DNA of 64,000 bases from Candidatus Woesearchaeota archaeon. GTDB lineage: Archaea; Nanobdellota; Nanobdellia; Woesearchaeales; UBA10216. The notes under the pieces are model-generated. The model saw only the letters and a program-made list of their open reading frames with translations. It did not search any database and was not told the origin of the DNA. Position numbers and translations under genes: made by a program. Location of the stretch: positions 103,391 to 167,390 of the forward strand of contig JACPBS010000004.1 of assembly GCA_016180195.1 (NCBI GenBank). The letters run 5' to 3'. Below are positions 6,010 through 51,436 of the stretch, one piece after another. Each line of letters opens with the position of its first letter. Position 1 is the stretch's first letter.

Positions 6010-6188
6010 ATGGGAGGCAAATCTGTCGGAATAGTTGGATTCGGCCAACTTGGGGGATTTTTAGCAAAGCATCTCAGAAATGATTTTGACATTTTTGTTT
6101 CCGGGACATTCAGGTTTTGAATCCTTATGCTGAAAAAGGAACATTCGTGTCAAAGATTGAAGATATTAGGAAAAAGCTTAAGGATTAA
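6010..6188 (+). pseudogene. Internally deleted prephenate dehydrogenase (TyrA)-like remnant
   Basis: 6010-6120 reads MGGKSVGIVGFGQLGGFLAKHL.. (Rossmann GxGxxG). A second frame, 6099-6188, reads FRDIQVLNPYAEK.., resembling the TyrA C-terminal DIQxxNP motif. Confidence 0.55.
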
Positions 6189-6889
6189 TTTTCATCCCAT
6201 CCAGAAAGATCTTTCTGGAATTCTCCACCTTTCACCCTCTTATATGGCATCCAGCTTTTCCTGAAGATCTCATGATGCGTCTCGTGGTTTTTTTTAAGAA
6301 ATGCCTGTGTAAGCGGGTCTGTAAGGTAGCCTGAGCCAAAATTGATCCCTATTTTTTTTTTGATTTTCCCTATTTCATCCTCCCTTGTGACCTTTGCCAG
6401 TATTGATGCAGCCCCGCATTCAATGTGATTCAAGTCAGCCTTGTGCTCCACAGAAACATCGATCTCCTTGTTATCAAGAAGTTTCATCAGGTATCTCTTG
6501 TAGTTGATTATGTTGTTGCTTGGGCTGTCTATTATTGCCTTCTGGGGCTTCAACGAGTTTATTATCTCTGCAGATTTGTGTGCCTCAAGCCAGTTGAGGT
6601 TAAGGTCATCAGACTGAAGGGCAGCATCTATTTCAGAAGGCTCAATGACAACTATTTTCCATTTTATGGCGATGGTTTTTATCTTGTCAAAAAGAGTTCT
6701 CATCTTCACGATTGACAATAGCTTAGAGTCCTTCACGCCAATTGATTTGAGGCTTTCGCTTCCTTCCTCATCTAACAGGACTCCTGCCATGACCATCGGA
6801 CCTATGATGGGGCCTTTGGGTTTACTTAAGCTCGAAAATCATGCTTAAAGTAATCTACCTGCCTCATCAATGCCGCAAACCACAGTCAT
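6185..6889 (-). CDS. rnhB: Ribonuclease HII, two exons (6889-6855 and 6815-6185), 221 aa after splicing
   Basis: Exon 1 MTVVCGIDEAGR joins exon 2 GPIIGPMVMAGV...GVKDSK...EHKAD...AASILAKVTRE...GSGY.TDP. The ATG at 6889 overlaps the upstream stop (ATGA). The ORF track calls only 6185-6796, which lacks the catalytic D/E. Confidence 0.92.
6816..6854 (-). other. Putative bulge-helix-bulge intron (39 nt) in rnhB mRNA
   Basis: AGGU-AG^A-UUACUUUAAGC...GCUUAAGUAA-ACCC-AA^A. The insert contains in-frame UAA and UGA, and its removal restores DEAGRGP. Confidence 0.8.
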
Positions 6890-7167
6890 ATTGCTATCAC
6901 ATTTTTGTTTAAATTTAATTTCCACATTTTTTTATCGGTCCGTATGACTAAACCTAATTTTTCGAGTTCTTTTAATCTTCGAAATGCAGATTTCCAAGAA
7001 ACGCCCAATTTTTCGGCCAATTCCTTAGTATGTTGACAATCTTCCACCAGAATATTTAAATATTTATACTTTAAATGCGATATAATAATTGCTTTTTTAG
7101 TTTTAATAACCCAATATTGTGAACTTTTAACCCTAAAATTCTCAATAATCATTTCTTTTTTGAGCAT
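6886..7167 (-). CDS. Small winged-helix DNA-binding protein
   Basis: TKELAEKLGVSWKSAFRRLKELEKLGLV HTH signature. Confidence 0.65.
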   Translation of the reverse strand: MLKKEMIIENFRVKSSQYWVIKTKKAIIISHLKYKYLNILVEDCQHTKELAEKLGVSWKSAFRRLKELEKLGLVIRTDKKMWKLNLNKNVIAI

Positions 7168-7322
7168 GGATTCGCATTCTTCAGTCTTTTGGATAATCCT
7201 CTGAGATTATTTTGTTTCCATCAGTATGCTGAAAGTGTCTATGTCTGATTCAGGGATTTTCAGCATCTTGGTTTTTTCGCTAAAAATTCAATGTCGGTTG
7301 TTGCTTCGACGATTTTTTCAAC

Positions 7323-7386: not shown

Positions 7387-8412
7387 TCACACATTCTGCA
7401 TATCTTTAACCAAACAATCCGGAAAATAAGTGTATTTAACCTCATCCAGTATGATTAGCAACTCGCTTCTTTTCAGCACGCCTTTGAGTATGCCCCTGAT
7501 GCCCAAGACTACCTCATTCAGCTTATCATTGGTCTTTGCCCTTATCTCAACATGCATATCGCTGCCTCCCACCGTCCTGTAGAAATAAGTTACATTCGGA
7601 TTTCTTTTCAAAAAGTCTTTTATTGCCACTTCGGCATGCCTTGTCAGTTTCTCTGTCTTCAATATGAGGAAATACCAGTTATAGCCCATCATTTTTGGCA
7701 AAACATCAGGCCTGTATTTCAGTATTATTTTCTTCTGTTCAAGCTTCTTCAGATGGTACTTTACATTGTCTCTTTGTGCTGCCAGCTTTTGAGCGAGTTC
7801 AGATATGCTCATTCTCGCATTTTTTGCCAGTATTTTCAGCAGCTTAAGTTCAAACTCTGTTAGTGCCTCTTTTTCGGGGTTTCCCCTGGTTATGTAATCA
7901 GGATTTCCGATTTTTCCGAAAACAAATGAGAATGGAACTGCGGCTTCCTCTATTATGTAGTCGAAATCATACCCGTCAAAATTTGTTTTGTATTTCTGCT
8001 CAATGTCCTTCATTATTGTTTCGATTTCGGCATAATTCCTGACAAACACCTTTATGATAGCATCATGGTTCCCAATGCATTTGAACAGCTGTGCTACATT
8101 CTCGTGGTTTTTGAGGTAATCAAGGATCTCTTTTTCCTTTTCATAGTCCAAGTCCCTGAACCTTATGAACACAAAGAACAGTTCCCAACCCATTTTCTTT
8201 ATATCAAGGACCGTATTAAATCCCACTATCAGTCCATTGTCCATCAGCCTGTTAAGCCTGTAGCCCACCGATTCCTTGCTGAGCCTTGCCTTCCTTCCAA
8301 TTTCCGACAATGGAGCCCTTGAGTTGTCAAAAAGCGCTGCAATTATCTTTTTGTCTTTCACGTCCAATATTAATTGCTTTTCATGAGCATTGTCAAGCAT
8401 TTCTTGAATCAT
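7387..8412 (-). CDS. Tandem (double) Lrp/AsnC-family transcriptional regulator
   Basis: Two HTH + RAM units: LDVKDKKIIAALFDNSRAPLSEIG.. and LTEFELKLLKILAKNARMSISELA.. Confidence 0.88.
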   Translation of the reverse strand: MIQEMLDNAHEKQLILDVKDKKIIAALFDNSRAPLSEIGRKARLSKESVGYRLNRLMDNGLIVGFNTVLDIKKMGWELFFVFIRFRDLDYEKEKEILDYLKNHENVAQLFKCIGNHDAIIKVFVRNYAEIETIMKDIEQKYKTNFDGYDFDYIIEEAAVPFSFVFGKIGNPDYITRGNPEKEALTEFELKLLKILAKNARMSISELAQKLAAQRDNVKYHLKKLEQKKIILKYRPDVLPKMMGYNWYFLILKTEKLTRHAEVAIKDFLKRNPNVTYFYRTVGGSDMHVEIRAKTNDKLNEVVLGIRGILKGVLKRSELLIILDEVKYTYFPDCLVKDMQNV

Positions 8413-8517
8413 ATAAGGGATTTTTAAAAATTTTTTTCTTATTTGATAAAATTTTTATGGGAAATATTAATATATTCTGACCAATAATTGCTACTATGAA
8501 GTTACAAGGGGGTAAAA

Positions 8518-39605: not shown

Positions 39606-42600
39606 TGTTTTTTTTTTGGTACATCTGTTGGAGTGCAGGAATTTGAATTATCGAAAGCTGCAAAATCATTATTGTTGATTATTATTTCACAATAGTTGGA
39701 TTCTATACTTTCGGCTTTTTGTTTGCATATGTCGAAACAGTTTTCAGGCTTTTTGCTTATTTCTCCAACATTGGTAAGTGAAGGGATTCTGTAGGTATCC
39801 CCTGCTTTGTATGTTTCTCCTTCAATAATAGCATTACAAACTCTTCCTTCGGTATTTGAGAATCCCATTTTGCAAGTACAGCAGCCTTTGCATCTGTTTC
39901 GGGTGAATTCCCATCCAAAATATTGAGTTTTGCCTAAAACGAAAGTTGTATATTGTGAACATTTCTTATAAGCATATGAAAGCTCAAAAGCGGACTTATC
40001 GCAAACTAAATCCCCAAGATTTTTATAGATCCCGTCATGAATACAATTATTTTTTACTGAAAGTTTCTGCTGACAACATTCCCGATCCGATCTACCACAA
40101 GTAAGTCCTTTATTTCCGATCCACCCTTCATCACAAGTTGGACTTTCTTTACACATTCTGAAAGAAGATTCATCAGGTAAACAAGTATTTTGACCGGGCG
40201 CTTGAACATCAACATATATTGCTCTTTTATTTTTGTCGTAATCAGTCTCCACAATATTTTTTTCGCTATTGACTTCAAAATGGACTATTAATCTTTCAAA
40301 ACCAGCAATCACCGCACCCCATTCAAAACTAAATACTTGGGTCCCTCCTTTGTCAAGTCCTTGGGAATAGCTTTGATAGCCTCCTTTTTCTGAAGGCACA
40401 GAATTACCATCAATCAACCATCTTGAATTGAAGGGCATTCCTTTAGGAATGGCTTTTCCTTTATTTGTAACTGTTGCCGTGAATTTGACTTTATCTCCTT
40501 CATAGATGTTTTCTTTATCTTTGGTTATGCTTGTTACCTCAAGGTCGTAGCCTTGTGATTCGGTGGTTTTGCATTCGCCTTTTTCGCAGGCTTTTCCTGT
40601 GCAATCCTCCTGTAATAATCCTCTGCCCTTGCCTGTGCATAGCACAGCGTTGCCTTGTGAATTGCATGCCTTTTCATTTCCTTGGCTGCATCCAGCAACA
40701 TCAATTGGCAATTTGCCTTTTTCAAAGCATTCCGCAGTTTGTTTGGCGACTGGGTCTGTTGTTGTAGAGCTGCATATTTTTTTATTGTCGCAGGGAACTC
40801 TCTCCCATGCATACCCTGCATATATTTTTGCGCCTTCAATAAATACGCATGCTTCCTTAAATGCGGCATCAGATGAGCATTTTGTTTTGTAAAGGCTTGC
40901 TGAATCGCATCCATCGCTTTTGCATGCATAACCGTGTGTTGCGCATTCGCAGTTTTTGGTTAGTTTTATATATCCTTTCTCTTCGCTATATCCGCAATAG
41001 GAAAATATTCCATCTGAACATTTACTTTCAAATGTTTCAGGCTTGCATTTTTCAGTTGTTGTTTTCTCGCATTTGTTTTGAGCATTGCATACCTGTCCTT
41101 CATTGCAGCCCTTATCCTCGCTGCACTCGTTGCATTTTCCGTTTGTGCAGCCATATTGACAGTTGTTGCATCCTTCCTTGCCTTGATCTTTTATCTGGTC
41201 TGCCTTGACTCCGCACGCTGCTGTTAGGAATGCTGTCCTGCCTCCTCCTGTCCCTGTGCATTTCTGCTTATTTTGCGCTGTTTTGCTTTCTTTTATCTCG
41301 TTTCCGGTGTATGCCCATAAGTATTGGTTCCCTTTTTTGCATACCACAGCTTCGCACCCTTCCTTTCCCGATTCGCTGGATATTTGGGGGTATACTTCGG
41401 CAGTATTGCAGCAGGCAATAACCTGTTTGTCATCCTTAAGCAACGATTCGAAAGTGCCTTTTGAGGTCTCTGTCTGCCTTTTCTCCTGTTCGTATTGTTC
41501 ATGGCTCTTGACGTTGTTGTTTATGCAGTACTGCCTTGTTGCCACTGCATCTTTTAGGAGCTTAATCTGTTCGTCGTTGGGCTTCTGTGCCTCTATTGCT
41601 CCCTTTGATTCCGGTTTTTTTTGCAGTTTTTCTTCATCATAACTAACCTGTACGTTTTTGTCATTGCATTTGCAGCTTTTATATAAGAAGTCGTTTCCCT
41701 CAGGGCATTTATCGAAAATCCCTTTTCCATTTAGGGTGAATGTTCCGCTCGCTCCTGAGCATGCTTCGTAGAGGTTGATCACTGTGAATGCCAAGGTATT
41801 GTCTTCTTTTGACCTGAGCGCATCTGCCGGGAATGTTAGCGTGTATTCATTTCCTTCTTTTTCTTTTTTTATTGCCCCTTTCCCATTTAGTTCAAAATCA
41901 GCGCAGTCATCATCGCACCTTATCTTGAATTGTGCATTCTTTGCGCATGAGTTTCCCTTCTCCTGAAGCTTGAAGGTGAACTTCGCCCCTTTTTTCTTGC
42001 TTCCTGCATCACTGACTTTTCCATACCCATACCTGTCTGCTGGCGCCCCTGTTAATCCGGTCTTGCACTCGCCCAGGGAAATATCCTTGTATTCGTTAAA
42101 TATCTTTACAGTTTGTCCTTCAGGCGCATAGATTGGCCCGTCCTCAGGCATTTGTCCCTGCAGGTTAGGCTTTCCTTTTTTGACGTCATCTTCACTTCTG
42201 AGGGAGCTTCCATCCTGCTTTTTTATTACCCATTGCGGGCATCCTGTTATTCCCTCAACATAGCACGGCGCCTGGTATATGTATCCGAGTTCGGTTGTCT
42301 GCTGGTCTTCTTTGCTTCCCCCGCATCCCACTACTATTGCGAATTTTGAGAAGTGGCTCACTGTGGCTTTTACCTGGTTATTATCTTGGTCAACTTCGCT
42401 GTCCAGCGTGATCCATAGGTCTTTGTCAGGGTCATGGTATGCTATCACTAGGCTTTCCTCGGGCGTGCCTGGCGGCAGTAGGCTTGGATTGTAGCTGATG
42501 GTCATCTTGATTGCGGGGCTAAAAGAGGCACCTTCTGGAAGGGCTTCGTACACGACTCCTCCGAATACAACTGAGTTTTCCAGGTTGTCGAATTTTTTGT

Positions 42601-50902: not shown

Positions 50903-51436
50903 ATGACAAAAGAGATCGTTAATGCGTATCTTTCAGAGGAAAGGGTGGTAACAGAGAACTCTGACGCTGCCCGGGAGTTGTATAACCAGGCAAGGTATGG
51001 GAAGATAACGAAGGATAATTCTGTCCAGCTTTCGCTTATAGAGGCATTTTACCTTAATGAGAAGCAGAGGATTGTTGTTCTTGACAAGAAGGGGAAGGCT
51101 GTTCCGGCCGAGACTTTCATGAAGAAGGCTTCGCGGAAGGAGCCTGGCTTCTGGGTCAGGTACTCAGTGTATAAGGACATTCGTGACAGGGGTTACATAA
51201 TAAAGACTGCCCTTAAGTTCGGTGCTGATTTCAGGATTTATGACCGCGGAGTGAAGCCCGGCGAGGATCATGCCAGGTGGATAGTATACCCTGTTTACGA
51301 GGCTGAGAAGCTGACTTGGTATGAGTTCGCTGCGAAAAACAGGGTTGCTCACTCTACTAAAAAAAGGCTTCTGATAGGTGTTGTTGATGACGAAGGCGAT
51401 GTTTCCTATTGGGAATGCAGGTGGCTGAGGCCTTGA
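50903..51436 (+). CDS. endA: tRNA splicing endonuclease (single-unit, 177 aa)
   Basis: LSLIEAFYL, VYKDIRDRGY, KFGADFRIY, H, RVAHSTKK: Tyr/His/Lys catalytic triad present. Confidence 0.95.
   Translation: MTKEIVNAYLSEERVVTENSDAARELYNQARYGKITKDNSVQLSLIEAFYLNEKQRIVVLDKKGKAVPAETFMKKASRKEPGFWVRYSVYKDIRDRGYIIKTALKFGADFRIYDRGVKPGEDHARWIVYPVYEAEKLTWYEFAAKNRVAHSTKKRLLIGVVDDEGDVSYWECRWLRP

Follow-up and report, generated by a model that had tools for sequence, protein, structure and literature searches.

How can an archaeon make RNase HII from a gene whose reading frame stops inside the DEAGRGP motif? The question is posed by rnhB in a 64,000-nucleotide stretch of a Candidatus Woesearchaeota genome (assembly GCA_016180195.1, contig JACPBS010000004.1, positions 103,391 to 167,390; hereafter the window, whose numbering we use), where a 39-nucleotide (nt) insert splits the motif. 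We conclude that these 39 nt, at 6854–6816, are very probably an intron of the bulge-helix-bulge (BHB) type, which is spliced out of the coding region of rnhB in this member of the DPANN archaea.

The interrupted gene

The gene is composed of the following parts:

6889 (ATG) to 6185–6187 (TAA stop), minus strand: rnhB, whole gene, RNase HII (PF01351), split by the 39-nt insert
6855–6889, minus strand: rnhB exon 1, ATG and 10 codons (MTVVCGIDEAG), then bases 1 and 2 of an Arg codon
6816–6854, minus strand: predicted BHB-type intron of 39 nt, contains TAA and TGA in frame, no second copy in the genome
6185–6815, minus strand: rnhB exon 2, the last base of the Arg codon, then GPIIGPMVMAG... to TAA

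Read from the ATG at 6889 on the minus strand, the open reading frame (ORF) translates as MTVVCGIDEAGR and then meets TAA and TGA. The break point lies after base 2 of the Arg codon in DEAGRGP, and the frame resumes 39 bases later as GPIIGPMVMAG... Deleting 6854–6816 in silico rejoins the Arg codon (AGA) and the reading frame, restoring DEAGRGP; boundaries at 6853–6815 give the same product because the flanking bases repeat. Exon 2 alone matches the Pfam family RNase_HII (PF01351) at 3.8e-32 over profile positions 9–197 of 199. The missing start of the profile is the part encoded by exon 1 (GIDEAG), and solved archaeal RNase HII chains align to exon 2 from their residue 10–11 on. Exons 1 and 2 together encode the full-length domain, including its N-terminal Asp-Glu pair, which we take to be catalytic.

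An earlier, sequence-only reading of the window had described the insert with its in-frame UAA and UGA, the return of G-R-G-P upon its removal, and two otherwise intact exons. The DNA bears out all three points, the last through the PF01351 match over exon 2 and the conservation of exon 1 as coding sequence (see below). An intact rnhB elsewhere, which would have spoken against that reading, is absent: the genome (G000; 1.23 Mb, 97.5% complete, with the window as its contig C21) has a single rnhB and hence no intact back-up, while the gene is present in 38 of the 41 genomes of the group. The insert has no second copy in the genome either, the best other match being 15 nt long, which rules out a mobile repeat. 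Searches of the window with Rfam and ARAGORN gave no match.

Inserts at the same codon in related genomes

Exon 2 of rnhB served as the query against 40 related genomes, and the sequence preceding every match was inspected. Among the first 30 rnhB loci, seven, including that of G000, have an insert at the same codon. The addition of 80 loci from public genomes brought the number fetched to 110, which represent 92 distinct rnhB loci; 14 of these carry an insert at exactly the position seen in the window and 78 do not. Metagenomes contributed a separate set of 80 rnhB loci, five of which were left out for being too short upstream, and nine of the 75 assessable loci have an insert of 20–38 nt. 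The 14 genome inserts are 22, 22, 27, 28, 30, 31, 31, 31, 33, 34, 35, 38, 39 and 45 nt long and have nearly no sequence in common, with short matches only, mostly in the part that forms helix and bulge. As most of the lengths are not multiples of three, only removal of the insert, and not readthrough, restores the frame. At one locus (L027) an inner TAG, which might have pointed to a second intron, is the normal stop codon of the gene.

To place the exon boundaries, all four possible divisions of the Arg codon were tried on each of the 14 genome loci. A helix of 4 base pairs (bp) forms with one of them only, the division that obeys the BHB rule of cutting behind base 2 of each bulge; it has 4/4 pairs in 13 loci and 3/4 in the window. 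At every one of the 14 loci, this division also rebuilds an Arg codon, AGA or CGA. In the metagenome loci, where it was the sole division applied, it gives a 4/4 helix and AGA in nine of nine. In silico, a cut at this position thus restores the frame and the Arg of DEAGRGP at every insert-bearing locus of both sets (14/14 and 9/9). The 5' bulge is 3 nt long in all 14 genome loci (AGN in 13, CGA in one), and the first base of exon 2 is invariably A. The sequence-only reading had taken cleavage by the tRNA-splicing endonuclease, EndA, after the second bulge base as established; this is indeed the published rule (PMC2738675), and it fits all 14 genome loci. That reading had also proposed looking for inserts at this site in the rnhB genes of relatives, and those found there covary, as the following analysis shows.

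The predicted fold and its covariation

In the window, the predicted fold has these elements:

6857–6860, minus strand: exon strand of the central 4-bp helix (AGGU), pairs with 6818–6821, 3/4 pairs
6818–6821, minus strand: intron strand of the central 4-bp helix (ACCC), pairs with 6857–6860
6854–6856, minus strand: 5' bulge AGA, cut predicted at the 6855/6854 bond
6814–6817, minus strand: 3' bulge AAA (6817–6815) and unpaired G 6814, cut predicted at the 6816/6815 bond
6822–6853, minus strand: intron hairpin, stem of 6853–6843 with 6831–6822 (10 bp, one bulged U), loop 6842–6832
6861–6869, minus strand: 5' strand of the outer exon-exon helix (UGAUGAGGC), pairs with 6805–6813, 8/9 pairs
6805–6813, minus strand: 3' strand of the outer exon-exon helix (GCCCCAUCA), pairs with 6861–6869

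This fold agrees largely with the one drawn in the sequence-only reading. RNAfold reproduces the 10-bp intron stem with its bulged U, and the proposed counts of three out of four pairs for the central helix (AGGU/ACCC) and eight out of nine for the exon-exon helix are correct; in RNAfold, the short helix consists of 6859–6857 with 6821–6819, and the fourth pair would be A6860·C6818. Of the two 3-nt bulges proposed, the one on the 5' side (AGA) stands, whereas the 3' bulge is effectively 4 nt long, since G 6814 is unpaired in both the minimum free energy fold and the consensus fold. The arrangement of two 3-nt bulges around a 4-bp helix is therefore present in a form that is relaxed on the 3' side.

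For the 14 insert-bearing genome loci, RNAalifold, given no structure, returned the order outer helix, 3-nt bulge, 4-bp helix, bulge and inner helix, with 8 of the 16 consensus pairs changed on both sides. Paired cells reach 94.2%, compared to 77.7% in shuffled alignments, and the covariation score is 0.545, compared to 0.204; none of 500 shuffles was as high in either measure. Sliding the partner strand by 1–3 columns lowers the paired cells to 29.5–52.3%. Both flanking helices, h and h', are present, with 95.7% of inner-helix and 90.8% of outer-helix cells paired. In a separate count, 55 of 56 central-helix cells and 67 of 70 inner-helix cells were paired, and none of 2000 shuffles attained either value. 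All five first pairs of the inner helix show changes on both sides. The outer two pairs of the central helix use the third bases of Ala and Gly codons and covary with the intron, the pairs observed being A-U, C-G, U-A and G-U at one position and C-G, U-A, A-U and U-G at the other. The structure is thus maintained by compensatory change.

The exons show constraints of their own. Exon 1 consists of 11 codons with a start codon in all 14 insert-bearing loci (ATG in 13, TTG in one), and its pairwise differences over the last seven codons are distributed 70/70/300 across the three codon positions; judged by this pattern, exon 1 is under purifying selection as coding sequence. Synonymous codons that extend the exon-exon helix are found more often next to an insert: GAG in 13/14 insert-bearing genes versus 27/78 intronless ones, GGC in 10/14 versus 27/78, and CCC in 9/14 versus 14/78. 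The mean number of pairs in this helix is 6.3 of 8 with an insert and 4.8 of 8 in intronless genes, where the pairing stems from the codons for IDEA...GPxI. The pairing in excess of this looks, from the codon counts, as though it were selected for. The pairing already present in intronless genes may make this site of rnhB receptive to a BHB intron.

Splicing enzymes and tRNA introns

The enzymes that would process such an intron are encoded in the genome. The endonuclease lies within the window:

50903–51436, plus strand: endA, tRNA-splicing endonuclease, 177 residues, PF02778 at 1.8e-15 (N-terminal) and PF01974 at 2.7e-28 (catalytic)

The sequence-only reading had assigned this ORF to EndA, and both expected Pfam domains are there. 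It provides the one PF01974 match of the genome (99.3 bits), and a single RtcB, with a PF01139 match of 567.5 bits and located at 41491–42780 of contig C19, supplies the ligase, so that the host possesses both a splicing endonuclease and an RtcB-type ligase. EndA can be aligned from end to end with the homotetrameric enzyme of M. jannaschii (1a79), its best match being the catalytic subunit of N. equitans. Introns in mRNA have been proposed to require a hetero-oligomeric (αβ)2 endonuclease, but this 97.5% complete genome yielded only one gene with an endonuclease domain, which speaks against such an enzyme here. Two papers (PMC5829648, PMC2738675) propose that pre-mRNA introns go with hetero-oligomeric EndA and describe the α4 type as strict for canonical BHB motifs; the first (PMC5829648) also associates DPANN α4 enzymes that have an extra loop with many disrupted tRNA genes.

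ARAGORN detected only 22 tRNAs in this 97.5% complete genome and predicted introns in 12 of these, with several introns lying outside the canonical positions. As so few were found and their introns are partly non-canonical, many tRNAs are probably too disrupted for detection, and the proportion of 12 in 22 with introns implies that EndA is heavily used. The parsing rule applied to rnhB recovers the introns of tRNA-Gln and tRNA-Tyr of this genome at the boundaries given by ARAGORN.

A second interrupted gene in relatives

Scanning the genome for further BHB-flanked inserts, as the sequence-only reading had recommended, failed in one form and succeeded in another. A scan of G000 for a 4-bp helix with bulges and inner and outer helices, coupled to ORF merging, gave 1050 candidates, compared to 1040, 1064 and 1003 in decoy registers, and was dropped because it had no power to discriminate. 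The second approach compared the whole genomes of G000 and a relative, G015, by tblastn in both directions, looking for in-frame inserts, matches split into two high-scoring segment pairs, ORFs without a start and missing ends, which were sought in other frames; such a comparison is blind to introns common to both genomes and to genes without an ortholog. It yielded one such intron per genome, that of rnhB in G000 and one in cysS, the gene for cysteinyl-tRNA synthetase, of G015. The other hits, among those inspected, were off-frame spurious ORFs, gene boundaries and two 1-nt frameshifts in homopolymers. The latter are in G000, on contig C5 near 45,360 and on contig C2 near 19,590 (runs A5 and T6), and affect genes for a tRNA-binding-domain protein and a protein similar to dTDP-glucose 4,6-dehydratase; they are not introns and could reflect mistakes of assembly, genuine decay or programmed frameshifting.

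The cysS insert of G015 is 31 nt long (L202:1468–1498, contig C14) and is located within the CGPTVY motif, just before HIGH. With the same ruler as in rnhB, by which the 5' cut falls 1 base ahead of the hairpin and the 3' cut 6 bases behind, Pro-Thr-Val-Tyr and the frame are regained. The central helix has three of four pairs and the fold has z = −2.77; RNAfold prefers a 3-bp central helix here, at which a cut would break the frame. Inserts of 31–33 nt occur in 3/30 cysS loci of relatives (L202 of G015, L201 of G007 and L197 of G022), and the one in G022, of 33 nt, has a different, fully compensated inner stem. The cysS of G000 itself is uninterrupted. By these predictions, two or more protein genes are interrupted in the lineage, few per genome within the reach of the comparison, and the suggestion that other truncated-looking genes may hide tiny introns gains support from the three cysS loci.

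Distribution and possible exchange of the introns

We computed a maximum-likelihood tree of the exon-2 proteins (92 rows, IQ-TREE quick mode, LG+G4). Insert-bearing rnhB genes are scattered across it, requiring 14 changes compared to a mean of 13.2 for shuffled labels, and well-supported branches force at least 4 changes in insert presence, gain and loss not being told apart by the tree. In a comparison of L013 with L014 and L002, two rnhB genes of the same genus are 86–92% identical in exon 2, 64% in exon 1 and 43% in the intron, and one of the two resembles a gene of another genus at its 5' end (83% in exon 1, 74% in the intron). Over these short stretches, the identities hint at an exchange between genes of a block formed by exon 1 and the intron.

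This rnhB codon is interrupted by introns of one design in a patchy minority of relatives, and the cysS of other relatives carries them too, from which we regard them as a recurrent feature of the lineage. One could go further and speculate, with considerable doubt, that Woesearchaeota carry mobile BHB mini-introns of 20–45 nt that repeatedly enter, leave and are exchanged at a few highly conserved catalytic-motif codons of housekeeping genes, moving with the flanking exon as homing elements do and being processed by a single-gene EndA. Two sites for such mini-introns have been found so far, DEAGRGP in rnhB and CGPTVY in cysS. If this were true, splicing of pre-mRNA by the tRNA machinery would be part of regular gene expression in a major DPANN lineage, and many genes recorded as truncated or frameshifted in such genomes would be intact. 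Gene callers will report genes of this kind as truncated or as pseudogenes, which distorts our view of the abilities of organisms with very small genomes.

Gene neighborhood

The ATG of rnhB overlaps the TGA of the gene upstream as ATGA, in line with the translational coupling of the start that the sequence-only reading had noted. The upstream gene is:

6886 to about 7167–7206, minus strand: small winged-helix gene (MarR/HTH_24-like), the start at 7167 being a guess (first Met)

Further upstream, a two-domain regulator of the Lrp/AsnC type is encoded at 7387–8454 on the minus strand.

Proposed mechanism and alternative explanations

In the mechanism we propose, the last bases of exon 1 would pair with the 3' end of the intron in the pre-mRNA to form the 4-bp central helix, the intron would fold into its own hairpin, and the two exons would pair with each other. 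The single EndA (50903–51436) would cut after the second base of each bulge and the RtcB ligase would join the exons, rebuilding the AGA Arg codon and the frame and giving full-length RNase HII with DEAGRGP; the intron would be released, probably as a circle. What the DNA shows is the insert itself, a fold that is conserved and covaries across many lineages, exons that are intact, and genes for both enzymes; that cutting and joining take place in the cell is what we infer.

Several points weigh against this mechanism. The splicing of rnhB is predicted from DNA sequence. In archaea, which lack a nucleus, the message would be open to ribosomes before it is spliced, and translation could then end after 14 residues. 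The enzyme itself looks, by its sequence, like a single-gene EndA of the α4 type. The central helix in the window contains an A·C mismatch and, in the modeled fold, the extra unpaired G beside the 3' bulge makes the BHB motif slightly relaxed. As a single sequence, the window folds with z = −1.38 over 91 nt (22/200 shuffles as good) and z = −2.62 over 75 nt (3/200 shuffles as good); its fold alone is only modestly better than chance, and the case rests on the comparative data. There, the shuffle tests and the codon counts overstate significance, since the relatives are not independent, and the exon-exon helix is partly a by-product of the protein motif, since intronless genes already form 4.8 of its 8 pairs.

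Of the alternatives, decay of the gene survives best, and we consider even this very unlikely. The insert would be junk in a pseudogene, or exon 2 would be translated alone from an internal Met, without the Asp-Glu pair. Small DPANN genomes do lose genes, two other genes of this genome carry 1-nt homopolymer frameshifts, and the insert with its two in-frame stops is followed by an in-frame ATG a few codons into exon 2. A decaying gene would not, however, be expected to have kept open exons and the same geometry around unrelated inserts in 14 genome lineages and nine metagenome loci, with an exon 1 that evolves as coding sequence and helices that covary, nor to be the sole rnhB copy in a 97.5% complete genome.

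Phage T4 gene 60 is an example of translational bypassing, and ribosomes might likewise hop over the 39 nt, or recode the message in some other way, without any RNA splicing. The layout has some resemblance to this, with Gly codons flanking the gap and a stop soon after the take-off region, followed by a hairpin. Yet a jump from one flanking Gly codon to the other would lose Arg-Gly and so leave DEAGRGP unrestored. Hopping also leaves unexplained the covarying 4-bp helix that joins the 3' end of the intron to exon 1, the fixed 3-nt bulges, and the recurrence of the geometry in cysS in a different sequence context, and we give it little credence.

We think it equally improbable that the BHB motif is cut mainly as a switch, with most transcripts left unspliced or destroyed in order to set the level of RNase HII. 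The position of the intron, 35 nt into the ORF and near a translationally coupled start, would suit such a role, and PMC7714728 reports that the BHB intron in the 5' untranslated region of Haloferax HVO_1309 affects expression. In rnhB, however, 78 of the 92 distinct loci do without the insert, and the scatter of the remainder on the gene tree looks like that of a dispensable element.

An assembly or sequencing artefact, which the sequence-only reading had named as an objection and which might come to mind since the window is from a metagenome-assembled genome, can be practically dismissed, because contigs from four runs of two studies of groundwater metagenomes, the source of this DNA, span 6413–7000 with 0 differences and 0 gaps (two of the runs may be the assembly's own source; the other two, X5 and X6, belong to a second study), and many other organisms, assembled independently, carry inserts of their own at this codon. 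Further contigs from these runs match only 6678–6695 and 6854–6879 of the window, with 17 nt less between them; from this spacing, they probably stem from a co-occurring relative with an insert of about 22 nt.

Comparison with known systems

In the papers searched (PMC7714728, as of 2020, with PMC2738675 and PMC5829648), crenarchaeal cbf5 is the one coding region of archaea said to contain a BHB intron, and the intron in the 5' untranslated region of Haloferax HVO_1309 is named as the only other archaeal mRNA case. In the searchable literature, that is without subscription journals and supplements, we found no BHB intron for rnhB, cysS or any DPANN archaeon. This agrees with the sequence-only reading, which had called cbf5 the best-known archaeal mRNA intron and knew of none in rnhB. 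For the cbf5 intron (Yokobori et al. 2009, PMC2738675, which cites Watanabe et al. 2002), a cut between the second and third bulge bases was predicted and splicing was confirmed by cDNA.

The rnhB intron and the cbf5 intron of Desulfurococcales and Sulfolobales are alike in many respects: both are short, of the BHB type and within a coding region, with the same cut position; in both the motif is often relaxed, the distribution is lineage-specific with losses, and gene prediction is confused. They differ in the host genes, here rnhB and, in relatives, cysS, and in the lineage, Woesearchaeota of the DPANN group. Whereas the hosts of the cbf5 intron have a hetero-oligomeric enzyme according to the same sources, G000 has a single endA gene. 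The rnhB intron is also far patchier, with its 14 changes on a tree of 92 rows, and it is known from DNA, in contrast to the cDNA-confirmed cbf5 intron. The rnhB intron works like the cbf5 intron but stands outside that intron family, its location being an RNase HII gene of Woesearchaeota and not cbf5 of Desulfurococcales or Sulfolobales.

In Haloferax volcanii HVO_1309, EndA likewise acts on an mRNA, and cleavage there was shown in vitro and in vivo; unlike in rnhB, the intron is in the untranslated leader and leaves the frame uninterrupted (PMC7714728).

If splicing of the Woesearchaeota inserts is true, rnhB and cysS would become the second and third host genes for archaeal coding-region BHB introns and the phenomenon would extend into DPANN. 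The association that has been proposed of hetero-oligomeric endonucleases with introns in mRNA would no longer hold. More than 20 sequence-diverse substrates at one site would then be at hand for the study of mRNA recognition by EndA and of intron gain and loss.

In eukaryotes, IRE1 and RtcB carry out an unconventional splicing of HAC1 and XBP1 mRNA (PMC13149111; PMC8718801 on the role of RtcB in XBP-1 splicing). A protein endonuclease there excises a small structured mRNA intron, an RtcB-type ligase joins the exons and the frame changes, which resembles the course proposed for rnhB. The endonuclease and the RNA motif are different in the rnhB case, the eukaryotic system is regulated by stress, and the likeness is one of mechanism by analogy only.

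Counterparts in structure are the canonical BHB introns of tRNA and rRNA (hBHBh'), processed by EndA and RtcB. Unlike these, rnhB would offer an mRNA without a tRNA body as substrate, its outer helix is formed by two coding exons, and its 3' bulge has one extra unpaired base. In common with them it has the two bulges, the 4-bp helix, the flanking helices and the same cutting rule, and the pairing of exon 1 with the 3' end of the intron corresponds to the topology of tRNA introns at position 37/38.

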